From Escherichia phage UPWr_E1, in sequence record PP418985.1: DNA of 64,000 bases; one strand, written 5' to 3'. Made by a program: the position numbers and the translations under genes. Below the pieces are notes generated by a model that made no database searches, had not been told where the DNA came from, and saw nothing but the letters and a program-made list of their open reading frames with translations. Position 1 is the stretch's first letter, and every line of letters starts with the position of its first letter. Shown here piece by piece: positions 10,163-59,690 of this stretch.

Positions 10163-10185
10163 AGCGGGAGAAATCCCGCTTTTTC
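10163..10185 (+). terminator. intrinsic terminator
   Basis: AGCGGGA-gaaa-TCCCGCT then TTTTT. Confidence 0.8.
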
Positions 10186-10197
10186 ATAGGTGATACA

Positions 10198-12060
10198 ATG
10201 GAAAAACTAATCAAAGACATTACAGAAATCGCAACGGGTAAAGAAAACGAAGTAAGCAAAGAGAACGCGAACAAAGACGCGCGAACATTCCCGACACGTC
10301 GAGATCTGATTGCTGGTGCTGTGTCTAAACAGATTGCTAAAACCGTGTTACCTGAGCACATCTATAAAGCGCATGTAGACGGTGATATTCATTATCATGA
10401 TATGGATTATGCACCCGCTATGCCGTTTACTAACTGCTGTCTTGTTAATCTCAAAGACATGTTAGAGAATGGTTTTAAATTGGGTAGTGCACAAATCGAA
10501 AGTCCGAAATCAATCGGTGTTGCATGTGCTGTAACCGCTCAAATTATCGCACAGGTGGCAAGTCATCAATATGGCGGAACTACCATAGCAAACATTGATC
10601 AGGTTTTAGCGCCATACGTTGAGAAAACATATCATAAACACCTTGCTGATGCCGAAACCTACGGAATCAAAGCTGATACTCTCTATGCACAAGAGAAGAC
10701 AGAAAAAGAAACGCTAGACGGATATCAGGCGTTGGAATATGAGATCAACACTTTGTTCTCTACCAATGGTCAAACGCCTTTTGTGACTTTAACATTTGGT
10801 ATGGGTACTAGCTGGGAAGAAAAACTGATTCAGAAAGCGATCCTGAACGTTCGAACTAAAGGTTTAGGTAAAGATGGTATCACTCCGGTGTTTCCTAAGC
10901 TGGTGATGTTCTTAGAAGAAGGATTAAACCTTAAACCGGAAGATCCGAACTACGACATTAAGCAACTTGCATTGGAATGTTCTAGTAAGCGTCTTTACCC
11001 TGATTATATCTCTGCGAAGAATAACCGTAGTATCACTGGATCTAGTGTTCCGGTTAGCCCGATGGGTTGTCGTAGCTTCCTGGGTGTGTGGCATAATGAG
11101 AAAGGCGAAGAAGTATTAGACGGACGTAATAACTTAGGTGTTGTGACTCTGAATCTTCCGCGTATTGCTCTTATTGCCGCGCGTCGTGCTGGTAAAGCGT
11201 CTGTAATGCGCAGAATTGAGCTATTCGAACAAGAGCTAGCTAATCGTATGCCTATTTGCTTTGATGCGCTCATGAGTCGCGTAGACGCTTTAAAAGGCGC
11301 TAAAGCCAATGTTGCTCCTGTACTGTATACCGAAGGTGCATTTTTCCGTATTCATCAAAACGATGAAATTTTGGAAGTGCTGAAAGATGGTCGCGCTAGT
11401 ATCTCTCTTGGTTATATTGGTTTACATGAGGTATTGAGCGTCCTGTTTGGTGTCCATCCGTTTGATTCGGAAGATGCGCAGCGATACGGTAAACATATTC
11501 TTAAGATCTTGCGTCATTATACTGAAAAATGGAAGGACGAAACCGGACTTGGGTTTAGTCTTTACGGTACGCCAGCCGAGAGCCTTTGTTATCGATTTAA
11601 TCGACTTGACCGAGAGCAATTTGGTATTATTAAGGGTGCTACCGATAAAGACTGGTACACCAACTCATTCCACCTTGACGTAGACCGGAAGGTTACACCG
11701 TTTGAGAAAATCGACTTTGAGAAAGATTATCACTGGCTGGCGTCCGGTGGCATGATCTCTTATGTTGAGTTCCCAGACATGAAAAACAACCTGAAAGGTC
11801 TTGAAACTGTAGTAGACTATGCAATGGATAAATTGCACTACTTCGGTGTTAATACCCCTTCTGATGTGTGTCATGTATGCGGATCTACTAAGGAAATGAG
11901 AGCGACCGAGTTTGGTTTTGTTTGTCCTGATTGCGGCAATGATAATCTGGAAAAAATGAATGTTATCCGTCGCGTTAGTGGATATCTTGGATCTGTTGAT
12001 CTGCGTCCATTTAACCACGGGAAACACTCTGAGATGGTAAACCGCGTTAAGCATATGTAA
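10198..12060 (+). CDS. nrdD: anaerobic ribonucleoside-triphosphate reductase (class III)
   Basis: 620 aa; C-terminal glycyl-radical region and zinc ribbon (CHVCG...CPDCG); no intron interruption. Confidence 0.92.
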   Translation: MEKLIKDITEIATGKENEVSKENANKDARTFPTRRDLIAGAVSKQIAKTVLPEHIYKAHVDGDIHYHDMDYAPAMPFTNCCLVNLKDMLENGFKLGSAQIESPKSIGVACAVTAQIIAQVASHQYGGTTIANIDQVLAPYVEKTYHKHLADAETYGIKADTLYAQEKTEKETLDGYQALEYEINTLFSTNGQTPFVTLTFGMGTSWEEKLIQKAILNVRTKGLGKDGITPVFPKLVMFLEEGLNLKPEDPNYDIKQLALECSSKRLYPDYISAKNNRSITGSSVPVSPMGCRSFLGVWHNEKGEEVLDGRNNLGVVTLNLPRIALIAARRAGKASVMRRIELFEQELANRMPICFDALMSRVDALKGAKANVAPVLYTEGAFFRIHQNDEILEVLKDGRASISLGYIGLHEVLSVLFGVHPFDSEDAQRYGKHILKILRHYTEKWKDETGLGFSLYGTPAESLCYRFNRLDREQFGIIKGATDKDWYTNSFHLDVDRKVTPFEKIDFEKDYHWLASGGMISYVEFPDMKNNLKGLETVVDYAMDKLHYFGVNTPSDVCHVCGSTKEMRATEFGFVCPDCGNDNLEKMNVIRRVSGYLGSVDLRPFNHGKHSEMVNRVKHM

Positions 12061-12066
12061 TTTTCA

Positions 12067-12098
12067 GCCGATCCGAAAGGGTCGGCTTTTTCGTTTTT
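12067..12098 (+). terminator. intrinsic terminator after nrdD
   Basis: 8-bp stem GCCGATCC / GGGTCGGC with GAAA loop, then TTTTTCGTTTTT. Confidence 0.8.
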
Positions 12099-12103
12099 AG
12101 GTG

Positions 12104-12131
12104 TTGACAATCTTGTTAGCTCATGTATAAT
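12104..12131 (+). promoter_or_regulatory. sigma70-type early promoter (extended -10)
   Basis: TTGACA 12104-12109; TGTATAAT 12124-12131. Confidence 0.7.
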
Positions 12132-12163
12132 GCACATATCGAAAACAAAGAGAGGATAACATT

Positions 12164-12700
12164 ATGTTTTGTGTACTGAATAAAGAAATTAAAATTCGCA
12201 AGTTAGAAATTGGTGATGGTGTAGTTGTTAAAATGCACGCTAGCACACTGGCTAGCTTTGGTACAAAAGAAAGTTTCTTTATTATGGGAACTGTTGTTAA
12301 TATCTGCTGGAGTAAAGGCGAAGGCACACAAATCCGTAGTTTTTGTGTCGTTGACGAAGATAATAATCTGTATGTGATTCGCTATCAGAATCAATCTGTA
12401 TTGGTTTATACCGATAATTCACGAGAACTGTATACGCTGGACTTTGCTAAACTATGTGATTGTGATAAAAAGATTCAGGCGTACCACACAGAAGGCTGTT
12501 TTGGTGTTGGCGTCGAAGAGGAAGAGTACATCCCATTGGAAGTCGGGGCAGAAATTAAACATAGTGCCACGGATCGTATTTTTACGGTTGTTGCTGTTAA
12601 TGCAACTCAATTTGTAGCACAAGCACATAATACGGGATTCGTTATCTATGACATTGGTAATGCAAGTTCTCATTTTGAGGGCGTACAATTTCGTTTATAA
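12164..12700 (+). CDS. hypothetical protein (178 aa)
   Basis: Promoter 12104-12131; ATG 12164 after AGAGGATAACATT. Confidence 0.55.
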   Translation: MFCVLNKEIKIRKLEIGDGVVVKMHASTLASFGTKESFFIMGTVVNICWSKGEGTQIRSFCVVDEDNNLYVIRYQNQSVLVYTDNSRELYTLDFAKLCDCDKKIQAYHTEGCFGVGVEEEEYIPLEVGAEIKHSATDRIFTVVAVNATQFVAQAHNTGFVIYDIGNASSHFEGVQFRL

Positions 12701-12712
12701 TGTGAGGTGATT

Positions 12713-13243: not shown

Positions 13244-13247
13244 ACGC

Positions 13248-13276
13248 TTGACGGGGATCGCGAGATCCCCTATACT
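13248..13276 (+). promoter_or_regulatory. early promoter with spacer stem-loop (type I)
   Basis: TTGACG 13248-13253; GGGGATC-gcga-GATCCCC 13253-13270; TATACT 13271-13276. Confidence 0.75.
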
Positions 13277-13318
13277 ATATTCATCAAGACGAGATACAAC
13301 TTTACAGGAGAATCAAAT

Positions 13319-13471
13319 ATGTGGACTTTACTGATTTGGGAAACTGAAAACGCACAAGTAGAAATCCGTGAATACGAATACCTAAGCCCAGCTTATCTAT
13401 TGGCATCTCGCGGTGGTTACTATAAAGCGCAGATTGTAAACGAGTTCGGGGTAATTGAATATGAGTTCTGA
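13319..13471 (+). CDS. hypothetical small protein (50 aa, not in ORF track)
   Basis: ATG 13319 after AGGAGAATCAAAT downstream of stem-loop promoter 13248-13276; overlaps nrdG start by 11 nt. Confidence 0.4.
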   Translation: MWTLLIWETENAQVEIREYEYLSPAYLLASRGGYYKAQIVNEFGVIEYEF

Positions 13472-13964: not shown

Positions 13965-13974
13965 GGTGATTATT

Positions 13975-14463: not shown

Positions 14464-14467
14464 TATT

Positions 14468-14953: not shown

Positions 14954-14965
14954 GAGGATTATATT

Positions 14966-15799: not shown

Positions 15800-15800
15800 T

Positions 15801-16697: not shown

Positions 16698-16718
16698 TTC
16701 TTGAGTGAGGAATATATT

Positions 16719-19613: not shown

Positions 19614-19645
19614 GAGAGCATCGAAAACGAAGAGAGGAAGAGAAT

Positions 19646-20671
19646 ATGAAAATTTTGCTTTTGGGTGATCTGCATACTGGTATCGGTGGCGATGATCCGT
19701 GGGTGCATGAGTATATTCTTGATACCATCAAGAAAGCGGTTGAATACTCCAAAGAGCATAATATTAAGACATGGATTCAAACAGGGGATTGGTTTGATTG
19801 CCGAAAAGCAATTACCCATGAAACCATGAAATTTAACCGTACTAAGGTCATCCCGCTACTGGAAGAGGCTGGTATTACTTGTTATACCACAGTCGGGAAT
19901 CATGATATGTTTAAACGAAACAAGATCCAGCCTAACGCACCGCGTGAAGTGTTAAGCCAGTATGATTGCATTAAGGTTATTGATAAACCGGAAACAGTCA
20001 CCTTTGATGGTGTATCATTTGATCTGTTCCCGTGGTTTTGTGATGACAATAAATCAGAGATTTTAGAGTTTATTCAAAACTCATTCAGCGAATATTGTGT
20101 AGGCCATTGGGAATTGTCTGGCTACTATTTCTATAAAGGGCTAAAATCCGAAGGTTATAGCGCGGACTTCCTCAAGAAATACCGTGAAGTGTTTTCCGGT
20201 CACTTTCATACTATCAGTGATGGCGGTAACGTAACATATATTGGTACACCATACACACTAACGGCGGGTGACGAAAACGATCCGCGTGGTTTTTGGGTAT
20301 TCGATACCGATACACACAAAAAAGAGTTTATTCAGAATGACAAAACTTATCATGTGCGTATCACTTACCCGTCAGATGATAAAATCGATGTAGAACGCTT
20401 TAAGGGGCTTAGTGTGCGTCTTATTGCAACGGTTGCTGATAATGGGTTAACTAAGTTAGAAAGCGCGTTAGAGGCCGTTGTACACAAGCTAAAAGTGGTC
20501 CATAAGCTGGAGAGTAGCGCATCACAGGAAACAGGTGTTATTGAAGTTAAAAGCACTATTCAGATGGTCTATGAATATCTGGAAGAACAAAACCTAGAAC
20601 CGGAAGAACTTGCGGCGGTCAAGCGTATTTCTGATGAACTTTTAGCCGAAGTAAATAGCGCAAAAAGTTAG
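19646..20671 (+). CDS. 47: recombination/repair nuclease subunit gp47 (SbcD/Mre11-like)
   Basis: MKIL.LGD.H phosphoesterase N-terminus, GNHD, GHFH motifs; colinear with remembered T4 gp47. Confidence 0.9.
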   Translation: MKILLLGDLHTGIGGDDPWVHEYILDTIKKAVEYSKEHNIKTWIQTGDWFDCRKAITHETMKFNRTKVIPLLEEAGITCYTTVGNHDMFKRNKIQPNAPREVLSQYDCIKVIDKPETVTFDGVSFDLFPWFCDDNKSEILEFIQNSFSEYCVGHWELSGYYFYKGLKSEGYSADFLKKYREVFSGHFHTISDGGNVTYIGTPYTLTAGDENDPRGFWVFDTDTHKKEFIQNDKTYHVRITYPSDDKIDVERFKGLSVRLIATVADNGLTKLESALEAVVHKLKVVHKLESSASQETGVIEVKSTIQMVYEYLEEQNLEPEELAAVKRISDELLAEVNSAKS

Positions 20672-20700
20672 TTGACGCGGGGAGAAATCCCCGTTATACT
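20672..20700 (+). promoter_or_regulatory. early promoter with spacer stem-loop (type I)
   Basis: TTGACG 20672-20677; CGGGGA-gaaa-TCCCCG 20678-20693; TATACT 20695-20700. Confidence 0.75.
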
Positions 20701-24798: not shown

Positions 24799-25485
24799 AT
24801 GAAACTGACTAAAGAAACCATTGCTACCCTGAAAAACTTTTCCGCTATTAACCCAGGTATCATCCTGAAAAAAGGAAACGTCCTGATCACCAAAAACATG
24901 ACAAACGTTGTATATGGTGAAGCGACTCTGAATCAAGAACTGGAACACGAAATCGGGATCTATGATCTTAACTCTTTCCTGGGTATTCTGAATCTGGTAG
25001 GTGATGAAGCAGATATTACGGTTGATAACCGCACTGGTAACATTCGTGTGTCTAACGATCGTCTGAAAATTAATTATCCTGGTGCTAGTGCTGCCGCTAT
25101 CGTATCACCGAAAGGCCGAGTTACTCCACCTGCAAGCGATGTAGATTACGAACTGAGCAACGACGATCTGAAACAGCTTATGAAAATGAGCAACCAGCTT
25201 AAAGTGGACCGACTTGAGTTTCTACCGATTGATGGTCGTCTGATGATCAAAGGCTGGGAAGAGATTGACAAAAATAATCCGAATGAGATGTTTTGTCTTG
25301 ATATGGGCGAATATGCCGGAACCGCAGACTTCCATTTCTTTATTCGTAAAGATAACATGAAACTGGTTGCTACTGACTTCGGCGATTACAAACTGAGCTT
25401 CACTCGCCGTAAGGCTGTATGGCTGGCAAGTGAAACCGTATCTTATATGATCGCGTGTGACCTTGACTCCAGCTACACCGACTAA
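24799..25485 (+). CDS. 45: sliding clamp gp45
   Basis: 228 aa; colinear with remembered T4 gp45 (MKL.K.T...LKNF..IN.GI.LK, AIYDLN.FLGIL.LV). Confidence 0.92.
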   Translation: MKLTKETIATLKNFSAINPGIILKKGNVLITKNMTNVVYGEATLNQELEHEIGIYDLNSFLGILNLVGDEADITVDNRTGNIRVSNDRLKINYPGASAAAIVSPKGRVTPPASDVDYELSNDDLKQLMKMSNQLKVDRLEFLPIDGRLMIKGWEEIDKNNPNEMFCLDMGEYAGTADFHFFIRKDNMKLVATDFGDYKLSFTRRKAVWLASETVSYMIACDLDSSYTD

Positions 25486-25491
25486 TATAAT
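25463..25491 (+). promoter_or_regulatory. sigma70-type promoter overlapping the end of gene 45
   Basis: TTGACT 25463-25468; TATAAT 25486-25491 (17-nt spacer). Confidence 0.6.
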
Positions 25492-25498
25492 GTTTGTT

Positions 25499-25522
25499 GG
25501 GAGTGTAAATACTCCCCGTTTT
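25499..25522 (+). terminator. hairpin plus T-run after gene 45 (terminator-like; type II hairpin word)
   Basis: GGGAGT-gtaaat-ACTCCC 25499-25516 then CGTTTT; lies just downstream of promoter 25463-25491. Confidence 0.5.
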
Positions 25523-25550
25523 AATGATGTAATTTGTGAGAGGTGATTAT

Positions 25551-26525
25551 ATGCTGAGTGTTAATGAAAATGAGTTTCAGTGGGAACAGAAATACCGTCC
25601 GAAATCAATTTCTGAATGTATTCTGCCGGAAGCAGATAAAAAGATCTTCGCGCAGATTGTTAAGCAAGGCCGAATCCCTTCAATGATTCTGCATAGCCCA
25701 TCGCCGGGTACTGGTAAAACAACCGTTGCTAAGGCGCTTTGCGAAGATGTGGGTGTTGATTATCTGTTTGTTAACGGCGCAGATTGTAAGATTGATTTTA
25801 TCCGCGATGAGATTACACGCTTTGCGCAGAGTGTATCACTCGATGAAGAAAAACGAGAAAAAGGCAAAGTTGTTATTATCGATGAGTATGACCGAGCGGG
25901 GTTAGCTGACGCTCAAAGACACTTGCGTAGTTTCTCTGAGGCATACTCAAACAACGTGACATTCATTATCACAGCAAACGATCTAGAAGGTATTATCCCG
26001 GCGTTACGATCTCGATTTGATCCCATCACGTTTGGATCTCCGACTAAAGATGATCAGCTTCGCATGATGAAAGAAATGATCGTCCGGTGTAAAGCAATTC
26101 TTGATAAAGAAGGTGTGCCAGTAGAAGAAATGCGCGTATTGGCGGAACTGGTTAAGCAGAACTTCCCAGATTTCCGGCGCGTAATGAAACTTTTGGACCG
26201 CTACGCTAAACATGGTAAAATTGATGCTGGCGTATTGAGCATGGTTATCGAAAGTAGCAATACCGAAGTAACTGATGTGGTGGAAGCACTTAAAACTAAA
26301 CAGTTTGCTAATGTGCGTAAACTAGCACCGCGATATACCAATACATACGCTCAATTTGTCAAGAAACTTTATAATGAGTTGTATACTCAAGTTAAGCCAG
26401 CGTCGATTATTCGTCTGACCGAGATTATCGGTGAAAATAATCAGATGTTTGCACACGCGGCTGATAAAGAGATTCACATTGTCTTTTTGTTAATGCAATT
26501 AATGGTTGAATTGGAGTTCGTATAA
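25551..26525 (+). CDS. 44: clamp loader large subunit gp44 (AAA+)
   Basis: EQKYRP, HSPSPGTGKTTVAKAL Walker A, VIIDEYDR Walker B; colinear with remembered T4 gp44. Confidence 0.92.
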   Translation: MLSVNENEFQWEQKYRPKSISECILPEADKKIFAQIVKQGRIPSMILHSPSPGTGKTTVAKALCEDVGVDYLFVNGADCKIDFIRDEITRFAQSVSLDEEKREKGKVVIIDEYDRAGLADAQRHLRSFSEAYSNNVTFIITANDLEGIIPALRSRFDPITFGSPTKDDQLRMMKEMIVRCKAILDKEGVPVEEMRVLAELVKQNFPDFRRVMKLLDRYAKHGKIDAGVLSMVIESSNTEVTDVVEALKTKQFANVRKLAPRYTNTYAQFVKKLYNELYTQVKPASIIRLTEIIGENNQMFAHAADKEIHIVFLLMQLMVELEFV

Positions 26526-27103
26526 TGTTAGGTCAATTTTTCGGTGAAGATGATACACAATTAAACGAGCATGAAATTGCATGGCGCTCTCGTGATTGGG
26601 AAAAGGTGTCTGAATTAGCGGATACATTCACCGAGAAAACCGACAATGCATTATTTGCTCTGATGGATCATATCACCTTAGATAAACAGCGCGTTAATGT
26701 TGGGAATAATTCTGCATACAATCAGAGATGGATTAATACCGCTCTTTCCCAGCACGCAGATTGCCTATATAGCGCGTATGTGATGAATTTAATCGGTCAT
26801 GGCCTCCCAGATCAAATGCATTTTGATTATCTCTTACAGAGTATTTCTAAGGGGAAACGATACGGTAAATGGGCTAAACTAACAGAAGAATTAGACCAAA
26901 AATTGGTTTTAATGGCAGTGGCGAAAGCATATTGTGTAAATATGGATGACGCCCGATTTTATCTCGATTTGGCTAATGAAAAGGGATATATGGACAAGTT
27001 ATTGAAGCACATTAAACCGTATGCGACCGATGAACTTTTGGCGGGTGTTACTAAGAATCAGACAGAAAGGAAACGACTTAAAAAGATTATAGAAAGGTGG
27101 TAA
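26525..27103 (+). CDS. 62: clamp loader small subunit gp62
   Basis: 192 aa ORF between 44 and regA; start overlaps gene 44 stop. Confidence 0.8.
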   Translation: MLGQFFGEDDTQLNEHEIAWRSRDWEKVSELADTFTEKTDNALFALMDHITLDKQRVNVGNNSAYNQRWINTALSQHADCLYSAYVMNLIGHGLPDQMHFDYLLQSISKGKRYGKWAKLTEELDQKLVLMAVAKAYCVNMDDARFYLDLANEKGYMDKLLKHIKPYATDELLAGVTKNQTERKRLKKIIERW

Positions 27104-43908: not shown

Positions 43909-46017
43909 ATGAAAATGCATATTGATAATGAAGAAGTATTTGGTAGTGACCTGAGCGGTGCGGTTGATTTTTCTCTGAAAGCAAGTAGCAAGGCTTTTAT
44001 GGTGCTTTCTAAGAACACGTATCAATATTGTGAGCGTGCTTGCGTCCGTGAGTATTCATGCAATGCTACAGACACTCACAAAGAAGCCGGAACCTTAGAT
44101 CGTCCGTTTGATATTCATTTACCGACTGCAATCGAACCGTATTTCTCTGTGCGTGATTATGGTACGGGTATTCCGTCTAAGAAAGAATTAGAACAACTGT
44201 TTACTGTTTACTTTGAATCAACCAAAGACCAGACTAATGATTATATCGGATCTTTTGGTTTAGGTGCGAAGTCTGCTTATAGCTATACTGACACCTTTAC
44301 AATCGTAAACTACTACAATGGTCGCGCTTATGGCTTTACTGCATTCGTGCAAAACTCTATGCCGAAAATGGTGCAGATTTTCGACGAACCGACCTATGAA
44401 GACAATGGTCTGAAAATCACTATTCCAGTGAAAGAGAAAGATATTCAGACATGGCATCGAGAAGCACAATTTGTACTGCGTCATTTTGGGGAACACAAAC
44501 CTAATATCAATGCCATCGAAATTAATTATTTCCCTAGCTTTGATAATTATTATGTGTGTAATGGACGTGATAACGATTCCTATGTGGTATATGCAATCAT
44601 GGGTAAGATCCAGTATCCGATCCCGTATGAATATGTTCGCGGAACATGGTTAGAAGCGGTAAACCGCCAGCACCAGACCATTTACATCAATTTCGAGTTA
44701 GGTGATCTGGACCTGATGCCATCGCGTGAAGAAGTTCACTTGTCAATTGAGACTAAAGCGAACATCGAAAAACGCATTGCAGAAATCAATGAAATGATGT
44801 TGGAAAAGGTTAAAGAAAAGATCGCCAGCATTGAAACAGAGCGTAAACTTGCGCAATTTATGAGCGAGTATTCATCGACTCAACGCAATATTATTAGCAA
44901 AATGGGTAAGATCGGACAGTGGGATGATCCGGTAGCAATCTATAATAAGTTTGTGAATGCGGGTAAAGATTCGCCAAATGACGTAGAAGGACAGGTGTAT
45001 ACTCTGTATCGCACTCGACACACAATCAGCAAATTGCGCCCTGCTTTCGTTAGCAGTCAATACAACATTACGCACTTTGTATGGATTCATAAAGAAGATA
45101 TTCTGTGTGTAATTGATGATACAGATAAACCGAAACTGCGTGCACTGACTCTTAACGGCATGGTCCAGGAATACGGCATCAATAAAAAGGTACTGGTGTT
45201 CCGTCAGAACAACGAAAAACATATGGAGACTTTCGAGTACATCAAACAGTATTATGATGAATCGGAAATGACCGTGATTAAAGTGTCCGAGGCCGACGAC
45301 CTGCGTGCTAAAGCAGTTAAGCCGGAGAAGACCGAGCGTACACAACGTGAAGCTACTCCTAAGCTACCTAACGTGTATATCATGGAAAAGATTGGTGACA
45401 GTTGGCATAAAACCAGCCATCACATGAAAGCGGCAGAGATTCGCGAGTTATCAGGCTTGCACATGTTCCGCGTGGGGGATGCATTCGAAAGCCGTATCCG
45501 TCAATCGATCTATAATGAAAATACATTACACACGGCGCTTGACTACTTCGGGGTAACAAAGTATATTATTACCCGTAATGAGACACAAAAATATCTCGTT
45601 GACGAACAACTGGAATGTGCGCTAGAATTTGTTCGCGGTAAGCTGGCGGGTCTGGCTAAGAAGGTTAAGACCAATCATCTGGGGTATGGCGAATATCTGG
45701 GTGTGATCACTATGTTGTTTCATGACGATGAACTAGAACGCTGTATTCCAGAATTTATTGACAGACTGTACGGTCGTCATTATAATAAAGAGGTTTCCAA
45801 GTTACTCCTTCGTACTCGTTGGATTATGGACGAAGAAACTAAAAAGATCTGTGATGAAAAATTCACGGCAGCAAACGAACGAATTAAAGCAGTTTGTGCG
45901 AAGTTTAAAGAGAATAGCCCGTTACTGTATGATATTGTAGATAACTGGTATCGTATTCTGCATAACGACAAACGCGCACAAGACTTTATGAAACTGGTTA
46001 AGAATGTTAAATTTTAA
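43909..46017 (+). CDS. rIIA: rIIA protein
   Basis: 702 aa (T4 rIIA about 725 aa); N-terminal ATPase-like region (DYGTGIP); position between 39 and rIIB. Confidence 0.75.
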   Translation: MKMHIDNEEVFGSDLSGAVDFSLKASSKAFMVLSKNTYQYCERACVREYSCNATDTHKEAGTLDRPFDIHLPTAIEPYFSVRDYGTGIPSKKELEQLFTVYFESTKDQTNDYIGSFGLGAKSAYSYTDTFTIVNYYNGRAYGFTAFVQNSMPKMVQIFDEPTYEDNGLKITIPVKEKDIQTWHREAQFVLRHFGEHKPNINAIEINYFPSFDNYYVCNGRDNDSYVVYAIMGKIQYPIPYEYVRGTWLEAVNRQHQTIYINFELGDLDLMPSREEVHLSIETKANIEKRIAEINEMMLEKVKEKIASIETERKLAQFMSEYSSTQRNIISKMGKIGQWDDPVAIYNKFVNAGKDSPNDVEGQVYTLYRTRHTISKLRPAFVSSQYNITHFVWIHKEDILCVIDDTDKPKLRALTLNGMVQEYGINKKVLVFRQNNEKHMETFEYIKQYYDESEMTVIKVSEADDLRAKAVKPEKTERTQREATPKLPNVYIMEKIGDSWHKTSHHMKAAEIRELSGLHMFRVGDAFESRIRQSIYNENTLHTALDYFGVTKYIITRNETQKYLVDEQLECALEFVRGKLAGLAKKVKTNHLGYGEYLGVITMLFHDDELERCIPEFIDRLYGRHYNKEVSKLLLRTRWIMDEETKKICDEKFTAANERIKAVCAKFKENSPLLYDIVDNWYRILHNDKRAQDFMKLVKNVKF

Positions 46018-46028
46018 GAGGTGATATT

Positions 46029-46160
46029 ATGACTAAACTGACCGCTATCCAGAAAGAAACCATCCGTAAACAATACGCTCGCGGCTTGACTAAAGGCGAA
46101 CTGGCACGAATCTATAATGTATCAGACCGCACAATCCGCAAGGTTGTAGAAGCAAAATAA
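46029..46160 (+). CDS. small helix-turn-helix protein (43 aa, not in ORF track)
   Basis: ATG 46029 after GAGGTGATATT; GLTKGELARIYNVSDRTIRKV resembles an HTH. Confidence 0.4.
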   Translation: MTKLTAIQKETIRKQYARGLTKGELARIYNVSDRTIRKVVEAK

Positions 46161-46172
46161 TTCTGGTATAAT
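46144..46172 (+). promoter_or_regulatory. extended -10 promoter upstream of rIIB
   Basis: TTGTAG 46144-46149; TGgTATAAT 46164-46172; leader hairpin 46183-46200. Confidence 0.55.
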
Positions 46173-46222
46173 GATGTGAATCGGGCGGCGAGAGTCGCCC
46201 AACTAATAGAGGAATGAATAAT

Positions 46223-50207: not shown

Positions 50208-50230
50208 AAGCCGATCCTCGTGGTCGGCTT
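50208..50230 (+). repeat. 23-nt terminator hairpin repeat, copy 1
   Basis: AAGCCGATCCTCGTGGTCGGCTT; identical in inverse orientation at 61354-61376; same stem with a different loop at 12066-12088. Confidence 0.8.
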
Positions 50231-50308: not shown

Positions 50309-50515
50309 ATGAAAGTACGTTGCATTGAAACAGATCACATCAATTATAGCTTTAGTGTCGGGTGTGATTATGATGTTGATGTATTCACAGACAATAGCGG
50401 AAACACATTTGATGTAGTCCACGGCGACTATATTTGGTTTTACTTTGACAAACAACAACTTACTGCAACCAAACGAAACGGTGATCCGGTAGCAAAATTT
50501 GAAATAATCGAATAA
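50309..50515 (+). CDS. hypothetical protein (68 aa)
   Basis: Promoter 50249-50277; ATG 50309 after AAAGGAGACTCAAA. Confidence 0.55.
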   Translation: MKVRCIETDHINYSFSVGCDYDVDVFTDNSGNTFDVVHGDYIWFYFDKQQLTATKRNGDPVAKFEIIE

Positions 50516-50520
50516 AGTAT

Positions 50521-50555
50521 ATTGACACCAGAACAAGGGAGTAGTAACATACTCC
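50521..50555 (+). promoter_or_regulatory. early promoter with -10 inside hairpin loop (type II)
   Basis: TTGACA 50521-50526; GGGAGTA 50536-50542 / TACTCCC 50549-50555; TAACAT 50544-50549. Confidence 0.7.
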
Positions 50556-50580
50556 CACACCAAACAAAAGGAGAATCAAA

Positions 50581-51032: not shown

Positions 51033-51067
51033 TTGACGCCAAAGGTCGTCGGTAGTAAGATACTCCC
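51033..51067 (+). promoter_or_regulatory. early promoter with degenerate type II hairpin
   Basis: TTGACG 51033-51038; TAAGAT 51056-51061; 3' arm TACTCCC 51061-51067 kept, 5' arm degenerate. Confidence 0.6.
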
Positions 51068-51317: not shown

Positions 51318-51346
51318 TTGACAGGGGATCGCCGATCCCCTACAAT
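51318..51346 (+). promoter_or_regulatory. early promoter with spacer stem-loop (type I)
   Basis: TTGACA 51318-51323; GGGGATC-gcc-GATCCCC 51324-51340; TACAAT 51341-51346. Confidence 0.75.
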
Positions 51347-51541: not shown

Positions 51542-51576
51542 TTGACACCGGATTAAGGGAGTAGTAAGATACTCCC
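51542..51576 (+). promoter_or_regulatory. early promoter with -10 inside hairpin loop (type II)
   Basis: TTGACA 51542-51547; GGGAGTA 51557-51563 / TACTCCC 51570-51576; TAAGAT 51565-51570. Confidence 0.7.
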
Positions 51577-52877: not shown

Positions 52878-52887
52878 GGATTACATC

Positions 52888-53256: not shown

Positions 53257-53264
53257 GGTGAACT

Positions 53265-53597: not shown

Positions 53598-53609
53598 GGA
53601 CATTATACA

Positions 53610-53942: not shown

Positions 53943-54056
53943 TTATGAAAGATGATGAATCATTGAAAATTGCACTGGTTATGCTATTACAATGTATAGA
54001 ATTAGCAAACCACGAAAAAATGTTGATACAGCAGCGTGAAACTATGAGAGGTGATT

Positions 54057-54380
54057 ATGATCGAGTTTGAAATTGACAACTTTCACGAAAAAGCAGAAGA
54101 CCTAACCAAAATTTTGATTAGTCGAGGTGCATATAATACGAAAGATATTATAAAAGAAGTTAATGTAGCGATGGACGCGATCCGAAAGGAATTTAAACAT
54201 ATTTCAGCGATTGGAGAAAATGGTCATCTTGAAGATGTTGAGCTGGTAGCACTGCGACGCTATTACTTCTTTGTTGATTGCATCATTGATCTAGCTAAAA
54301 ATTATAGCCATTACATGAAAGATATTGTAAAAGATGCACGTAAGCTGGCAGAGAATGTTTACGGGAAGTTTCCAGAATGA
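54057..54380 (+). CDS. hypothetical protein (107 aa), paralog of 53610-53942
   Basis: ATG 54057 after GAGAGGTGATT; C-terminus ...LAENVYGKFPE. Confidence 0.5.
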   Translation: MIEFEIDNFHEKAEDLTKILISRGAYNTKDIIKEVNVAMDAIRKEFKHISAIGENGHLEDVELVALRRYYFFVDCIIDLAKNYSHYMKDIVKDARKLAENVYGKFPE

Positions 54381-54625
54381 AATTAGAACAAGCGATTGTA
54401 TACTTTGAGATGGGCTATGATATTGCTCGTGTAGAGTGGGAAGATGGTGATTTTGTCCGATTGATTGATCTTCCAGAAACAGCTATTGCACTGGTCAAAG
54501 TAGAAAACGGCATACAACGAAATTATGCGTTCTCTGACGAAGACAAACAAGCCGATGACTGGTACGCTACCTGTTTTCATCATACAGCGTCAAAATGTGA
54601 TTCAGGGGCTTCTATGCGCCAATAA
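54377..54625 (+). CDS. hypothetical protein (82 aa)
   Basis: ORF; bidirectional terminator 54631-54657 follows. Confidence 0.5.
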   Translation: MKLEQAIVYFEMGYDIARVEWEDGDFVRLIDLPETAIALVKVENGIQRNYAFSDEDKQADDWYATCFHHTASKCDSGASMRQ

Positions 54626-54630
54626 AAAAG

Positions 54631-54657
54631 AAGGGGAGGCCGAAAGGCTTCCCCTTT
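54631..54657. terminator. bidirectional terminator between convergent early (+) and late (-) units
   Basis: AAGGGGAGGC-cgaaag-GCTTCCCCTT flanked by AAAAAAG upstream and TTT downstream. Confidence 0.75.
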
Positions 54658-54660
54658 AAG

Positions 54661-55317
54661 TTATCTAATCCTTCCGAGGATTCTGGCAGATTGATTGCAA
54701 AGAGTATCTAAATTCTCAATGTCAATATCTGGTTTATTCTTCCATGCAATGGCGATACTACCAGAATAGACATTATCGAGATTGAATATAGGACAAGAAT
54801 ACATGAATCCTATATCGATATTCTCTAATTTTTTCTCCCTCGACGGAATATACTGGAAATCTTTATCGGTAAAATAGGATTTACCTAAAAGATGCCTACG
54901 ATATTCTTCGCTCGTTTTATTGATAGGGAAGCCGCCTAAATTCTTTTCATCAATTGTATGTGGCAATTTTCCTTCGTATGCCACCAAATCAACGAAATAG
55001 TTTAGGTTTTTTGGACGAAAGCTAAAAACAGCAGAAAAATCGGCATCTGCCGACACATGAACTATCTGTAACTGCTCCTGTGCTGCATTATCAAAATTGC
55101 GGTCTTTTTCTACCTGGAGAACGTGAGCATAAGTCTCATAACGAGTTTCTTTATAAAGCGCAAACAACTCGTTTTTGCTATAAACGACAAATGCTAATAT
55201 AGACAACACAACGGCAGCAAAAACACGAAGTACGAGCAACTCCGTGCTTTTAGTTGTGAAAATAGCGCGCAGGACATTTGAGATAGCAAAGTCTTTCTCT
55301 TTTTCAGAAACTTGCAT
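54661..55317 (-). CDS. t: holin T (T4-type class III holin)
   Basis: 218 aa (same as T4 T); single N-terminal TM helix; LQIVH.S..ADFSAV.SFRPKNLNYFVD..AYEGKLP, RILGR as in remembered T4 T. Confidence 0.9.
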   Translation of the reverse strand: MQVSEKEKDFAISNVLRAIFTTKSTELLVLRVFAAVVLSILAFVVYSKNELFALYKETRYETYAHVLQVEKDRNFDNAAQEQLQIVHVSADADFSAVFSFRPKNLNYFVDLVAYEGKLPHTIDEKNLGGFPINKTSEEYRRHLLGKSYFTDKDFQYIPSREKKLENIDIGFMYSCPIFNLDNVYSGSIAIAWKNKPDIDIENLDTLCNQSARILGRIR

Positions 55318-55351
55318 ATAATGCCCTAAAAATAACTATGACAGTGTACCA

Positions 55352-55591
55352 TTATTTAGGTACTTGACTATCACCCGTTTTATTCTGCTCGTTGCTATCT
55401 TCCGTCTGTTCTTTATTAAACTCCTTATAAAGTTCTTCCACAAAACGGTCATCAATTGGCGTATTGGTATATGCCGCAAGACGACGAGCGCAATAGAAGA
55501 AAATTTTAGTGAGCATCTTTTCACTAATTAACTTTGATAATAATTTCATTCCGAAACTAGACAAAGCACCAATGACGATATTATAGACCAT
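55352..55591 (-). CDS. hypothetical protein (79 aa)
   Basis: ATG 55591 preceded on - strand by AAGGAG; N-terminal hydrophobic segment, acidic C-terminus. Confidence 0.55.
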   Translation of the reverse strand: MVYNIVIGALSSFGMKLLSKLISEKMLTKIFFYCARRLAAYTNTPIDDRFVEELYKEFNKEQTEDSNEQNKTGDSQVPK

Positions 55592-55642
55592 AGCCGTTTC
55601 TCCTTAGTAGTTCCCTTCCGTGGGAGCTTTCCTTAATTCTTT

Positions 55643-55945
55643 TTAGCGGTTGCTCAAACGTCTATAGCGAAGATGGGAAATACCCCTGTTTGTAGTTACC
55701 GTGATCGTTACTCCCTGCGGCACAATACAAGAATGGATCTGTCCCCAATCATGACCCTTATGACTCCCAGACACACAAAAGCCATGCAAAAGCAATTCAG
55801 AGTCACCGCCACCACCACCAGAAGAATGAGCACCAAATGAAACCGTACCGAAAGCGTCTGGTGTCCATCCATTAGGGATATCAAACCAACCCTGATTCGC
55901 TTTACCAGCTTTATTACCTAAAACACCATCTACCCACCATCCCAT
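55643..55945 (-). CDS. small glycine-rich paralog C (100 aa)
   Basis: GWWVDG...GWFDIPNGW...GGGGGD; start overlaps paralog B stop (TAATG). Confidence 0.6.
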   Translation of the reverse strand: MGWWVDGVLGNKAGKANQGWFDIPNGWTPDAFGTVSFGAHSSGGGGGDSELLLHGFCVSGSHKGHDWGQIHSCIVPQGVTITVTTNRGISHLRYRRLSNR

Positions 55946-56244
55946 TAATGCATTCTCCTAAATTGGAAGTGGTTTAAACTTCCTTTGCCAATACTAAAGC
56001 TGACAGTAGCGCCAGCACCAACTAAAGAACTAGCTCCCCAACTTCCTGCACTACCGGCGTGATGACCAGATTCAAGAGTACCGTTTACATATAGCTCTGC
56101 ATCTAGGTCATTACCAGCGGCTTCGGCATGAACAGATACAATACCGCATGAATCTGCCACCCAACCATTAGGAATACCAAACCATCCACCATTAGCATAA
56201 ATGCTAATAGCATTTGCCATTCTTCCAGCAATCCACCCAGCCAT
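55945..56244 (-). CDS. small glycine-rich paralog B (99 aa)
   Basis: AGWIAG...GGWFGIPNGW; 2 nt after paralog A stop. Confidence 0.6.
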   Translation of the reverse strand: MAGWIAGRMANAISIYANGGWFGIPNGWVADSCGIVSVHAEAAGNDLDAELYVNGTLESGHHAGSAGSWGASSLVGAGATVSFSIGKGSLNHFQFRRMH

Positions 56245-56246
56245 AA

Positions 56247-56543
56247 TTAAAACTCCATAAATTTAAAGTATTCAATCCCACCGACACCACCATGACCAAA
56301 TGTAACAGTACATCCAGCAGGAACAAACGCATTAACGGTAAATCCCCAATCCCCGCCACCACGACGACGAGCGGCAACTACACCATCAACGGAAATATGC
56401 ATATCACCCCAACCATCATTAGCATTATGCCGCAAAACAGCAACCCCTGCACGACTGGGTACATATCCATTTGGAATATCAAAAACATGCCATTTTAAAG
56501 CATCAATTTTAGTATTAATTTCACTACCGACCCAATATCCCAT
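56247..56543 (-). CDS. small glycine-rich paralog A (98 aa)
   Basis: MGYWVG...WHVFDIPNGY...GGGDWG...GHGGVGG; 38 nt downstream of gp37 stop, RBS TAAGGA. Confidence 0.6.
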   Translation of the reverse strand: MGYWVGSEINTKIDALKWHVFDIPNGYVPSRAGVAVLRHNANDGWGDMHISVDGVVAARRRGGGDWGFTVNAFVPAGCTVTFGHGGVGGIEYFKFMEF

Positions 56544-56554
56544 TTAAGATCCTT

Positions 56555-56573
56555 AGCGGGGAGAAATCCCCGC
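56555..56573 (-). other. intercistronic hairpin between gene 37 and glycine-rich paralog A
   Basis: + strand AGCGGGGA-gaaa-TCCCCGCT; same stem word as the type I promoter hairpins; T-run only on + strand side. Confidence 0.55.
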
Positions 56574-56581
56574 TATTTTAA

Positions 56582-59500
56582 TTAACCAAATAATTTAGCC
56601 TCAATTGCAGCAAGACGTTCACGAAGAATTTTATTTTCTTCTTTAAGAAGTGCAATTTCTTCTGTGTGTTCGTTGATTGCAGCAGTAATTAAACCAATAA
56701 CACCGTTATAGTTCAAACGAAGAAGGTTTTCACCAACCGGATCGCCTTCAACTAGTTCCGGTAAAATGGCTTGAACTTCTTGAGCAATCAAACCAGCATT
56801 AGGCTCCCATCGTTCGCTACCGTCTTCATTTACTCCGCGTTTTTGAAGATACATATAACCGTTAATTTTTGAAAGTGTCTGTGATGCATTTTCAAATTTA
56901 ACTAAATCCTTCTTCACGCGAATATCAGAACGGATATAAATGTCACGAACATATGTCGAATAGTTGTCATTCGCCTGAATCAAATGACCATGAGAAATAA
57001 TAGCTTTGTCAACTTCGGTCCATAAAGCAGCACCAACACTCCATAATCCAGGATGTTCTTGATGGAAGATACCCCATGAGGCAATATGTTGTCCGTTTGC
57101 CATCAGGTTAATACGTCCATCACCACCATGCGCTAAACCAGTGTCATTATCACCAATAGCAATTGATGCGCCTCCCCAAACCGGAACCGTACCAACACCA
57201 ATTCTAGGAGTTTGAATCAAAGGGCAATAAAACTGTCCGTTAGCATGAAACTCAAACACACCTTGTGGATGGTTAGCCCCTGGTGTAGCTTCCGCAGATC
57301 CAACACGAATAACAGCTTGTCCCCATGTTCCGGGAGTACGACGTAAGCCAAAGTCAGCCTTAGTAGAATATCCTTGACCTGTGATCTGGCTATGTCCTTT
57401 AATAAGTGGATAATAGCTATCTTGTCCAACACTACCCTGATCAATAAAGATAGGTGCTTCTTCGCGCCACTGTCCGTCCCATGAACCGGAATGATTAGCA
57501 ACCCACTGTGTAGCGTTTATATAGATGCGGTCTTTGCTAATACTAACATTATTAAAATTTTGTGGCGCAAGTGCTATCTCGCCATTATTCGTGATGTGTA
57601 TACCAGCCTGAGTTGCATAGCTATAAAATGCTAGCGAATTATCCGCACCACCTTTACCAATATACCAGTTATTATTTCCGCCTATATCACCGCGAATATG
57701 CAAAGAATTGCTAGCGGTAGTCGATAGTACAATCGCATCACCCGGACGTTTAATGGTTAGTCGACCGTCGGATTCAACTTCACCAAAGAACTTAGTTTTA
57801 ATTGCACCCGTCGCTAAAGTACGTTCAGTGGAAAAATGAGCGCCTTTGCTATCTTCTAACTGAATAATGTTATCACGAGCATTATTGCTATCACCCCAAT
57901 GATTAAACCGGAAATAATCGCGTGATTGCTTACCACCCGCTTCAAACGTCAGCGTACCTTTACTTAAATTAACATCACCACCAAAGGTAGCAGCAAGCGA
58001 ACTACTTTTTAATCTTAAAATATCAGCACCGCTAGTTCCACCTAAAGTAACATCACCAGTTTTGAATTGATAACGGAAAGGTCTATTTGTGTTAAAGTTT
58101 CCATCTTGATCATTTTCGTCGGTGGAAAGAATATAAAGACTTTCACCATCATTACGGAAAATTGTACCAAAATTACCGCCATACATTTTAAATGCATTGG
58201 ATGAACGGAATTTAACTTCTGTGTTAAAAGTTGTAGTTGATTTAAACGTTGTTGAACTACCGAAGTTAACAACACCATTAAAATCTTGTTGTGCTGTCCA
58301 TGTGTGGCGACCATCTTCCACAACAATACGGCGAACGGTATTAGTTCTATTTCCCGGATTACCAGCTACACGAACGACAAAATAACGGTAGTTAGCTTGT
58401 GACACAGTACCACGCCAAACCTGAACGGTGCGACCTGTTCCGGTATGCTCACTAGGTCCAACGGATAACATAATTAAGTTACCGTCAATCGTTCCCCAAT
58501 CCATATTTGCTGGCATGTTCTTGACTTTATTCAGCGGTACGCTATACATCCCGCCAGGAACAAAATCAAATGTTTGCCAGTCTAGCTCTGTTAATTGAGC
58601 TTTAACACCACCCATACCCAAAGTAATTGGCAGAGAATAAGATGTATATACTTCGTTCCATGTACCCCAAACGCCATTAGTATATGCGCGCTCAAAAATA
58701 CGTCCGCGAGTAGTTGCACCTGTTCCGGCAGTAGTAAATTTTTGGAAAATAGCACCACCAGAAGCACGCTGTTTAACTTCCAGCAAACCAACAATAACAG
58801 GCGGCAAACCTTCACCTGTAGGGCAGTTAATAACGGCATCAGTGCCTAAAATATTATATAAACCTGGAGTTTTAAAATCATTCAGGTTTCCGTCATAGAA
58901 AGTCGCTGGTGTGACATTACCTACTTGTTGCCACGGTCCCCATTTAGGCGCAGAAGCATCCCACGCAGCAGCAAGACAACGAGTATAAACAACACCAAAT
59001 CTGGTCGTATATCTCTGTGTGCGAGAATATTTTCCACCTTCATATACTTCTAAAAGTCCTTGAGCGGACGATCCTTCTTCTGGGAAATTTCTGTCAAAGG
59101 TAGCAATGGTATTTGAACTATTCCGCCACAAACCAAAATGTTCCGCGCCACCTAGATCATTAAGATCAATTGTGGTTGACAATGGACGAGTACCGGATTG
59201 AATATTTCTCCACACACCCCACGGACCATCAACACCATTCCATTTAGCAGACAAAGAACGAATATAAACATTTCCGTATCTAGTTGTATATCTCTGAGTT
59301 CCAGCAAATTGCCCAGCCGTAAACACTTCCAATACACCAACAGCATTTTCTTCTGGGAATTTATTTGCAGGTTGCGCATTTGTTGAAGTAGATTTAGACC
59401 AAATGCCAGTAAATTTACCAGTCGGTCCATAATTATCTAAATTTGCATCAGTTGGCAATTCGCCGCGAAAGTGTCCCAAAGTAATTACATTATTGCTGTC

Positions 59501-59626
59501 ATCTTTTGTATATAGTTCTCGATCCGCTAGGTTAATAGCAAGTTCACCCGGAGTTAGAATATTCGCATCCGGCTTGCGACCTGCCGTACTTGTTCTTTTA
59601 AATTGGATTCTCTGTAAATCTGCCAT
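56582..59626 (-). CDS. 37: long tail fibre distal subunit gp37 with C-terminal intramolecular chaperone domain
   Basis: 1014 aa (T4 gp37 about 1026 aa); between 36-like gene and holin; C-terminal about 120 aa contain SDIRVKKDL plus coiled coil, typical of peptidase S74 auto-cleaving chaperone domains. Confidence 0.85.
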   Translation of the reverse strand: MADLQRIQFKRTSTAGRKPDANILTPGELAINLADRELYTKDDSNNVITLGHFRGELPTDANLDNYGPTGKFTGIWSKSTSTNAQPANKFPEENAVGVLEVFTAGQFAGTQRYTTRYGNVYIRSLSAKWNGVDGPWGVWRNIQSGTRPLSTTIDLNDLGGAEHFGLWRNSSNTIATFDRNFPEEGSSAQGLLEVYEGGKYSRTQRYTTRFGVVYTRCLAAAWDASAPKWGPWQQVGNVTPATFYDGNLNDFKTPGLYNILGTDAVINCPTGEGLPPVIVGLLEVKQRASGGAIFQKFTTAGTGATTRGRIFERAYTNGVWGTWNEVYTSYSLPITLGMGGVKAQLTELDWQTFDFVPGGMYSVPLNKVKNMPANMDWGTIDGNLIMLSVGPSEHTGTGRTVQVWRGTVSQANYRYFVVRVAGNPGNRTNTVRRIVVEDGRHTWTAQQDFNGVVNFGSSTTFKSTTTFNTEVKFRSSNAFKMYGGNFGTIFRNDGESLYILSTDENDQDGNFNTNRPFRYQFKTGDVTLGGTSGADILRLKSSSLAATFGGDVNLSKGTLTFEAGGKQSRDYFRFNHWGDSNNARDNIIQLEDSKGAHFSTERTLATGAIKTKFFGEVESDGRLTIKRPGDAIVLSTTASNSLHIRGDIGGNNNWYIGKGGADNSLAFYSYATQAGIHITNNGEIALAPQNFNNVSISKDRIYINATQWVANHSGSWDGQWREEAPIFIDQGSVGQDSYYPLIKGHSQITGQGYSTKADFGLRRTPGTWGQAVIRVGSAEATPGANHPQGVFEFHANGQFYCPLIQTPRIGVGTVPVWGGASIAIGDNDTGLAHGGDGRINLMANGQHIASWGIFHQEHPGLWSVGAALWTEVDKAIISHGHLIQANDNYSTYVRDIYIRSDIRVKKDLVKFENASQTLSKINGYMYLQKRGVNEDGSERWEPNAGLIAQEVQAILPELVEGDPVGENLLRLNYNGVIGLITAAINEHTEEIALLKEENKILRERLAAIEAKLFG

Positions 59627-59660
59627 TTTATAAAATCCTTAACGGTTATTAGAATAATAT

Positions 59661-59690
59661 TATTTAGAAAAGCGGGGATAATCCCCCGCT
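59661..59690 (-). terminator. - strand terminator between the gene 36-like gene and gene 37
   Basis: + strand AGCGGGG-ataatc-CCCCGCT 59671-59690; on - strand followed by TTTCTAAATA. Confidence 0.55.

Follow-up and report, generated by a model that had tools for sequence, protein, structure and literature searches.

Why do a few short GC-rich hairpins recur as promoter spacers, as terminators and between late genes of the same phage? The question is raised by a 64,000-nucleotide stretch of the genome of Escherichia phage UPWr_E1 (PP418985.1), the whole of which is called the window here. An original prediction, made from the letters of this DNA, had proposed a small vocabulary of structured elements that recombine between regulatory contexts. 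Our results indicate that these hairpins are, with a probability of about 80%, the Gn-loop-Cn stem-loops (SLS) of RB49-like phages, found both in promoter-early stem-loop (PeSL) cassettes and as ordinary terminator hairpins. The observation is correct and non-random and its interpretation partly right, and the core of it is already known as the published PeSL system.

PeSLs were described in RB49 and phi1 by Arbiol, Comeau, Kutateladze, Adamia & Krisch (2010, Genome Biol Evol 2:140; PMC2839356) as sigma70-consensus promoters with an AT-rich upstream tract and a polyG/polyC SLS in one of five positions, at about 52 per genome. Comeau, Arbiol & Krisch (2014; PMC4122927) called the RB49/phi1 stem-loop 'GN-loop-CN'. 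Promoter activity was measured, SLS211/210 lowered lacZ expression to an extent similar to rrnB T1, and the RB49/phi1 elements PeSL206/205, 193/192 and 211/210 were the objects of promoter, terminator/attenuator or mini-circle experiments (PMC2839356). It was further proposed that recombination between PeSLs shuffles ORFan cassettes and forms mini-circles (PMC2839356), and PeSLs have been published as terminator-plus-promoter cassettes that mediate modular shuffling (PMC2839356, PMC4122927). The core finding has to be regarded as known because the PeSL at 3551 of the window is identical over 70 of 70 nt to RB49 PeSL211/210, which was tested as a terminator and which in RB49 is a paralog lying 80 kb away.

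The window comes from the same group of phages. A 4-kb sample of it shares 97% identity with Escherichia phage ECD7 and with about 58 other records of Krischvirus, the RB49/phi1/JSE group of T4-type coliphages. The window follows the reverse complement of RB49 collinearly, starting at about 47.7 kb, passing back through rIIA and rIIB and ending at about 147.3 kb. The plus strand of 1-54,650 carries early and replication genes (nrdD, gp47/46, gp45/44/62, gp43, uvsX, gp41, rIIA/B and many small open reading frames, ORFs), and the minus strand of 54,661-64,000 carries the late genes, namely holin t and the long tail fibre genes gp34-gp37. An IMG/VR search with gp47 gave two Krischvirus loci only, and the comparisons were taken from GenBank phage records.

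All six hairpins cited in the original prediction were found where it had placed them. An intergenic map and a promoter-first scan of the window revealed about 16 early intergenic promoters with an embedded GC-rich stem-loop, each hairpin placed after one gene's stop codon and before the Shine-Dalgarno sequence (SD) and ATG of the next, behind an AT-rich tract. The stem-loop lies between the two boxes, -35 and -10, at 1484 and 20678 (type I) and at 3556, 13253 and 51323 (type III), so the proposed use of the type I stem as a promoter spacer at 1484-1499 and 20678-20693 holds. It lies over the -10 box in type II, at 7470, 8381, 50537 and 51557 (-10 TAAGAT in the loop) and, in degenerate form, at 51048; variants overlapping the -10 occur at 4243, 9613 and 43199, and at 25499 the stem-loop stands just downstream of it. 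Type II promoters score 10-11/12 for sigma70. The AT-rich tracts read TCATTTAATTGTTGACA at 1478 and AAAAAGTTAGTTGACG at 20672, SD and ATG follow 25-45 nt downstream, and the ORFs behind the type I hairpins at 1484 and 20678 have 96 and 81 aa, their RB49 homologs being annotated as hypothetical. Like the published PeSLs, these elements belong to the same genus, have a near-consensus TTGACA-N17-TATAAT promoter with an AT-rich tract and a Gn-loop-Cn hairpin in, over or beside the boxes, are intergenic on the early strand upstream of small ORFs, and are associated with insertions and deletions (indels). Unlike PeSLs, the hairpins at 10163, 56554, 59671 and 62538 have no early promoter, and they are therefore not PeSLs; only the SLS design is common to both.

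The words themselves are few: GCGGGGAGAAATCCCCGC (type I), GGGAGTAGTAAGATACTCCC (type II), AGGGGATC-N3/4-GATCCCCT (type III), AGCCGATCC-N4-GGTCGGCT (type IV) and GGGGGCGAAAGCCCCC. As had been proposed, a small recurring set serves promoter spacers, -10 boxes, stand-alone terminators and late intercistronic sites. At least four words are present on early and late strands alike; in the window and RB49, GGGGGCGAAAGCCCCC, AAAGGGGCGTTAAGCCCCTTT and the type IV word were found on both strands, and RB49 has the type I design also between gp18/gp19 (AGCGGGGAGAAAATCCCCGCT), gp19/gp20 and gp36/gp37. The type III family was recovered through a hairpin census, since its loop length ranges from 3 to 5 nt and the pattern GGGGATCNNNNGATCCCC for this reason matched one copy only.

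These words are far more frequent than chance would allow. With up to three mismatches, the type I word has 4 matches in the window against 0.23 expected, and the type II word has 5 against 0.01. The hairpin census, limited to perfect stems of at least 6 bp with at least 4 GC pairs and to loops of 3-8 nt (expectation from dinucleotide-preserving shuffles), gave 28 in the window, where 9.8 +/- 2.1 were expected, and 85 in the complete RB49 genome, where 28.4 +/- 5.4 were expected. Hairpins whose first arm is a G-run account for the entire excess (18 against 0.75 in the window, 49 against 1.8 in RB49), and C-run-first hairpins are at expectation (1 against 0.7 in the window). The G-run-first bias (5'-GGG...CCC-3') is strand-symmetric in both the window and RB49, and transcription direction alone therefore does not explain it. 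As RNA, the cited hairpins fold stably, at -9.6 to -17.4 kcal/mol with z-scores of -3 to -4.6; the Rfam 15 covariance models at gathering score gave no match on either strand of the 64-kb window. Cross-context reuse of hairpin words is real and genome-wide. The original prediction had named one outcome that would undo it, stems no more frequent than composition predicts; the hairpin counts exceed that expectation in the window and in the complete RB49 genome, and the objection fails for that reason.

Table 1. Stem-loop elements of the window, with their sequences and surroundings (energies are those of the RNA fold).
Feature	Positions	Strand	Sequence and context
PeSL, type I	1478-1505	+	TTGACA-CGGGGAGAGATCCCCG-TATAAT, sigma70 12/12, 16-nt spacer; stem-loop 1483-1500, loop GAGA, one mismatch to the type I word, -12.8 kcal/mol, z -4.0; upstream of 96-aa ORF (1536-1826)
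PeSL, type III	3551-3579	+	Stem-loop 3556-3574 AGGGGATCACGTATCCCCT between -35 and -10
PeSL, type II	7455-7491	+	Stem-loop 7468-7491 overlaps -10; TAAAAT in loop
PeSL, type II	8366-8400	+	Stem-loop 8381-8400 (GGGAGTAGTAAGATACTCCC) overlaps -10 TAAGAT; -11.9 kcal/mol
PeSL	9601-9634	+	Stem-loop GGGAGTATGCTATAATACTCCC overlaps -10 TATAAT; RB49 ortholog in covarying set A2
Putative intrinsic terminator	10163-10185	+	10163-10180 = AGCGGGAGAAATCCCGC, type I with one base pair fewer (AGCGGGAGAAATCCCGCT), then TTTTTC; no promoter; between stop of 164-aa ORF and nrdD; -13.9 kcal/mol, z -4.4
PeSL, type III	13248-13276	+	Stem-loop 13253-13270 GGGGATCGCGAGATCCCC between -35 and -10
PeSL, type I, exact word	20672-20700	+	TTGACG-CGGGGAGAAATCCCCGT-TATACT, sigma70 10/12, 17-nt spacer, word at 20678-20693; begins 1 nt past gp47 stop, upstream of 81-aa ORF; -12.9 kcal/mol
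Gene 45/44 intergenic element	25463-25526	+	TTGACT-17-TATAAT (25463-25491, sigma70 11/12), stem-loop 25499-25516 GGGAGTGTAAATACTCCC, then CGTTTT
Putative type IV terminator	50209-50229	+	AGCCGATCCTCGTGGTCGGCT then T-run, then a separate promoter; word recurs on the late strand at 61354-61376
PeSL, type II	50522-50556	+	Stem-loop 50537-50556; part of ORF+PeSL cassette (50313-50548) that RB49 lacks
PeSL, degenerate type II	51033-51067	+	Mutated left arm GTCGGTAG; mosaic relative to RB49
PeSL, type III	51318-51346	+	Stem-loop 51323-51341 between -35 and -10
PeSL, type II	51542-51576	+	Stem-loop 51557-51576
Late intercistronic stem-loop	56554-56575	-	TAGCGGGGAGAAATCCCCGCTA, between gp37 (56582-59626) and 98-aa ORF (56247-56543); -16.5 kcal/mol
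Late stem-loop gp36/gp37	59671-59690	-	AGCGGGGATAATCCCCCGCT; sense reading AGCGGGGGAUUAUCCCCGCU then UUUUCU, terminator/attenuator-like; three mismatches to the type I word, one unpaired C
Putative type IV terminator after gp35	61354-61376	-	In sense orientation then UUUAUUUUU, terminator/attenuator-like
Late stem-loop gp34/gp35	62538-62555	-	AGGGGGCGAAAGCCCCCU, GAAA loop in sense; same word on RB49 early strand at 136849

The anatomy suggests how such an element may work. In a PeSL the SLS lies between the boxes of an early sigma70 promoter close to consensus, over its -10 or just downstream of it. Hairpins of the spacer and -10-overlap classes would end at or before position -1, the 3' arm of type II ending 6 nt past the -10; a hairpin upstream of the start site would therefore be transcribed only by polymerases coming from the previous gene. 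The SLS would terminate or attenuate that read-through RNA and the promoter would restart transcription for the next gene, making each small gene an insulated cassette. The same hairpin followed by a U-run, without a promoter, would be an ordinary intrinsic terminator, for which 10163 is the candidate. On the late strand, 59671, with its U-run, may be an attenuator between tail-fibre cistrons, and copies without a sense U-run, such as 56554, are most likely 3'-end, stability or processing hairpins, or stops for antisense transcription.

A GC-rich hairpin with an immediate sense U-run was found at 10163 (UUUUUC), 59671, 61354, 50209 and 25499; it is lacking in sense at 56554 and 62538 and doubtful for the spacer hairpins, where UAUAAU comes next. 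In their GC-rich stem, stable tetraloop and U-run, 10163, 50209 and the sense readings of 59671 and 61354 resemble Rho-independent terminators with GNRA or UUCG loops, unlike the promoter-embedded hairpins and 56554, which have no canonical sense U-run. The reading of 10163 as the type I word less one base pair followed by a T-run was accurate, and this terminator is kept in RB49 (with a GAAAA loop), in ECD7 and in the metagenomic relative L126. TCAACG and TTTCAT stand there where promoter boxes would be, and this sequence was too weak for us to claim a decayed PeSL.

As regards the late strand, the original prediction was right that hairpins stand between cistrons at 56554 and 59671, but at 56554 the type I word sits on the plus strand, and the late, minus-strand RNA has a UUUC loop, not GAAA, a point that it overlooked. 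At 56554 and 62538 the T-runs are on the plus strand only, antisense to the tail-fibre genes, with SD and ATG directly after the hairpin in sense; as terminators these two would stop early-direction antisense transcription, not late mRNA. In the G2248 record the late-strand hairpins are annotated as putative terminators. No minus-strand sigma70 promoter scoring at least 10/12 was found in 54500-63000, and on this ground we rejected the possibility that the late-strand copies are opposite-strand PeSLs.

The hairpin at 25499 had been taken for the type II word below a promoter. The GGGAGT/ACTCCC stem is indeed common to both; the loop and the position differ, and the element is the conserved gene 45/44 intergenic hairpin, for which RB49 annotates an early and a late promoter. 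The stem-loop begins 8 nt after the -10 of its promoter, was terminator-like in the scan, and has 6 bp in the window, owing to a G-to-T change, against 7 bp in relatives. Its loop is TGTAAATA in the window and RB49 and TATAAATA, a perfect late-promoter motif, in ECD7. With a start predicted at the 5' edge of the hairpin, it may attenuate gene 45 read-through as well as its own transcripts, and its loop may hold the late promoter.

Covariation supports the -10-overlapping hairpins as structures conserved in spite of different sequences. In a combined MAFFT alignment anchored on the -10 box the registers were off by one column, and the hairpins were split into sets A2 and A3. Set A2 comprises seven hairpins with the different stems GGGAGTAT, GGGTGTAT, GGGGATAT and GCGGTTAT; they are 100% paired and have 9 double-change cells, a value reached by 0 of 500 shuffles.

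Several points weigh against the reading of these hairpins as PeSL cassettes and terminators. Termination at each window hairpin, like the function of the late-strand copies, is something we infer from DNA letters and not from transcripts. The single published terminator test concerned one type III SLS on a plasmid (PMC2839356). Spacer hairpins are followed by UAUAAU or UAUACU, not a clean U-run, and type II hairpins by AUC..., so that by canonical criteria they are weak intrinsic terminators. At 56554 the T-run is antisense and the sense loop is UUUC, and at 25499, with its start at the 5' hairpin edge, the argument that the hairpin is excluded from its own transcript may fail. The A2 set was picked from sequences already known as hairpins, which is an ascertainment bias, and set A3 (type II alone) has weak, non-significant covariation, with too little variation to inform. 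The type I copies are compatible with convergence and descent alike.

This last point leads to the larger claim of the original prediction, that of a mobile vocabulary whose stem-loops have been physically moved between promoter spacers, terminators and late intercistronic sites. Recombination is visible at the promoter-embedded copies. Type II and III cassettes are alike over 70-100 nt among PeSLs, and the 3551 PeSL differs from its RB49 ortholog in the loop only (CACGTA against CGGTGA), that loop agreeing with the distant paralog. The type I PeSL core at 1475-1511 stands where RB49 has a 909-nt cassette (45290-46197) that encodes the g38-like adhesin RB49p079 and has terminator hairpins on its flanks; the break falls exactly at window 1512 in 45 of 58 Krischvirus records, 12-13 have the window layout, and three of the latter (kvi, G2248 and Skers) carry the exact CGGGGAGAAATCCCCG at the site of the window's 1484 hairpin. 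Where the adhesin gene lies seems to vary together with this junction. The records with the window layout that were examined (G5211, kvi, Skers, FL04 and G2248) have a distal-fibre module different from that of RB49, and in G5211, kvi, Skers and FL04 the adhesin gene adjoins gp37. At 50313-50548 the window has an extra 68-aa ORF (50309-50515) and a type II PeSL, RB49 being without both; the insertion is flanked by a repeat of about 36 nt that is the PeSL's own SD region, and it is a cassette indel of the kind published for PeSL mini-circles. No indels between relatives were seen at 20678, 13253 or 10163; these sites are conserved, the 20672 PeSL being identical in RB49, ECD7 and L126. The PeSL-bounded indels and the distant identical paralog fit the published PeSL model and add nothing new to it.

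Whether the type I word itself has moved from one of the three contexts (promoter, terminator, late strand) to another is a different matter, and to this the evidence of recombination does not extend. The full reading is doubtful in our judgement. It gains from the indels at 1475-1511 and 50313-50548, from the paralog identical over 70 nt that bears the very loop separating the window from the RB49 ortholog, from the mini-circle crossover that Arbiol et al. placed inside an SLS loop, from the words common to both strands, and from the fact that 10163 and 56554 are a single lost G:C pair apart, AGCGGG(G)AGAAATC(C)CCGCT. Against it, the similarity of type I copies across the three contexts ends at the stem, with no homology in the flanks, and an identity of 16-20 nt is too short to demonstrate homologous exchange. 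The 16-mer is also generic. An IMG/VR scan for the exact type I 16-mer found it as the core of a hairpin in viral contigs, at least 120 of them and mostly unrelated, whose GC contents are 34-63%, one Krischvirus being among the matches listed; in these matches the stem was longer than the 16-mer in 106 of 121 occurrences and a T-rich tail came next in 38.

The loops tell in the same direction. RB49 has in sense 7 GAAA tetraloops against 0 UUUC, 9 GNRA against 0, and 4 UUCG. In the window, GNRA loops stand in sense at 1484 (GAGA, where relatives have GAAA, so that the GNRA pattern is retained) and at 10163, 20678 and 62538 (GAAA), not at 56554. This sense bias points to independent selection on RNA, and the late-strand loops flip, as described below, so that exact identity with the early-strand word hangs on the loop state. 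Given the stem-limited similarity, the GNRA bias, the generic 16-mer and the loop flips, the type I reuse would be explained at least as well by convergence on a G-run stem that a GAAA tetraloop closes as by descent. Because such a stem and loop are a common optimum and few words of this kind exist, exact recurrence among about 50 hairpins is unsurprising. On the PeSL-and-terminator reading, the sameness of the words may then have two sources: paralogy and gene conversion among PeSL cassettes, and convergence on the thermodynamically optimal G-run stem with a GNRA (GAAA) tetraloop under selection at the RNA level.

Short structured words that recur between genes have parallels elsewhere. Intercistronic C(UUCG)G hairpins were reportedly described in T4 by Tuerk and co-workers in PNAS in 1988; they too are very stable tetraloop hairpins between cistrons of a T4-type phage, with near-identical short words recurring. 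Unlike them, the Krischvirus words are mostly G-run stems with GAAA, UUCG being the second commonest RB49 tetraloop. REP/BIME and Correia elements are short structured intergenic repeats in many copies that affect termination or mRNA stability and are substrates of recombination; unlike these, the window elements are integral parts of promoters. No transposase, terminal inverted repeats or target-site duplications were noticed at the indel junctions, where no dedicated test was made.

Across 11 genomes the late-strand stems are invariant and the loops variable or flipped. At three late-strand sites the loop is the exact reverse complement between close relatives, with stems and flanks unchanged. 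Between gp37 and the next ORF it is GGGGATTTCTCCCC in the window against GGGGAGAAATCCCC in G2248, and at this 56554 site G2248 and KFS-EC have GAAA in sense, inverted with respect to the window. Between gp36 and gp37 it is ATTAT in G5211 and FL04 against ATAAT in G2248, and GATTCTC in kvi against GAGAATC in phiS; between gp37 and gp38 of the T2-type module, G5211 and Skers have GCGTTGC where FL04 and kvi have GCAACGC. RB49 PeSL paralogs have a like inversion (GGT against ACC loops). The orientation of the word on the late strand is labile, and since the loops flip between relatives, a late-strand 'same word' is one of two interconverting states. Comparable loop inversions are the small inversions of chloroplast genomes. 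The pattern looks like the signature of template switching at inverted repeats (flip-flop), a process described in general by Monttinen & Loytynoja (2022, PNAS; PMC8794818). As there, the loop is reverse-complemented with stem and flanks intact (56554, 59671 and gp37/gp38); unlike there, the change is a polymorphism among close phage isolates at terminator-like hairpins. Late-strand word reuse, tetraloop bias and loop inversion are not discussed in PMC2839356 or PMC4122927.

A tentative view, rather unlikely on balance, is that the vocabulary is shaped by mutational drive as well as by selection. Perfect G-run stems would extrude as DNA in the course of recombination-dependent replication and be worked upon by template switching and short-tract gene conversion, which would repair stems, flip loops and copy words between sites; loop flips would be frequent and heterogeneous within a single lysate, and the SLS would be hotspots. 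If this were true, SLS between tail-fibre and adhesin genes would promote the exchange of host-range modules.

It is unlikely, further, that the primary function lies in the DNA, with the elements acting as hairpin or cruciform extrusions, as recombination or repair hotspots for endonuclease VII or the gp46/47 palindrome nuclease, or as supercoiling-sensitive promoters, termination being secondary. The loop inversions at three sites, which show DNA pairing of the repeats during replication by template switching, the indel junctions at PeSLs, the strand symmetry of the G-run-first bias and the blocking of DNA sequencing reactions by SLS without betaine (Arbiol et al.) speak for it. Such a function predicts no preference in loop orientation, yet GNRA and UUCG loops of RB49 stand 13:0 in sense; the hairpins fit exactly between a stop codon and an SD/ATG or U-run, and an SLS lowered lacZ expression in a transcriptional fusion (Arbiol et al.).

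Still less probable is a role of the hairpins as signals of RNA processing or decay instead of terminators, in which RegB (GGAG), RNase E or RNase III sites, or barriers to 3' exonucleases, would set the half-lives of the cistrons. RB49 encodes regB, GGGAG is present in types I and II, and stable 3' hairpins are established exonuclease barriers; moreover, 56554 and RB49 88876 (gp18/gp19) have no sense U-run and are directly followed by SD and ATG. The GGAG, however, lies inside the stem, where RegB cutting is not expected, and the type III, type IV and GGGGGCGAAAGCCCCC hairpins have none. That the stems are a mere product of base composition is wildly improbable and was rejected, the type I, type II and G-run-first counts exceeding those of every dinucleotide-preserving shuffle by large factors and the hairpins being intergenic and kept in relatives.

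PeSLs are a published explanation for the way in which small accessory genes are kept by T4-type phages in the form of insulated cassettes open to exchange, and the window is a further Krischvirus isolate that has them, with no new kind of element. Our additions are minor. Words are reused on the late strand, GNRA loops are biased towards the sense orientation, the 16-mer is generic, and the loops show a flip-flop polymorphism. One hairpin design, G-run/GAAA, is common to the late tail-fibre operons and the early-strand cassettes, and a type I PeSL marks the junction of a polymorphism in an adhesin-gene cassette. This may be of use in annotation, in phage engineering and in the choice of insulators and safe insertion sites, and it carries the caution that short identical hairpin words need not mean recombination.

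Three observations concern the surroundings of the hairpins. The distal tail-fibre module of the window (55645-59499), with a 1014-aa gp37 and three ORFs of about 100 aa (55643-56543), is unrelated to its counterparts in RB49, JSE and ECD7 and has high identity with G2248 only (95.9% over 54000-64000); other relatives have a T2-type gp37 and a gp38 adhesin in its place. RB49 has the HNH endonuclease gene RB49p040 (26368-26930) as an insertion, with the terminator that follows the a-gt.4 homolog on one side and gp47 on the other, a site that corresponds to 19643-19649 of the window; the window, ECD7 and L126 are without this gene. The sole copy of TATAAATA, the T4 late-promoter motif, in the 64 kb is at 61219-61226 on the minus strand, where 5.6 copies would be expected in the window by chance, and the motif appears to be avoided elsewhere in the window. 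It lies upstream of gp36 and after the type IV hairpin at 61354; the intergenic region that holds both is 201 nt long and has two more small hairpins.

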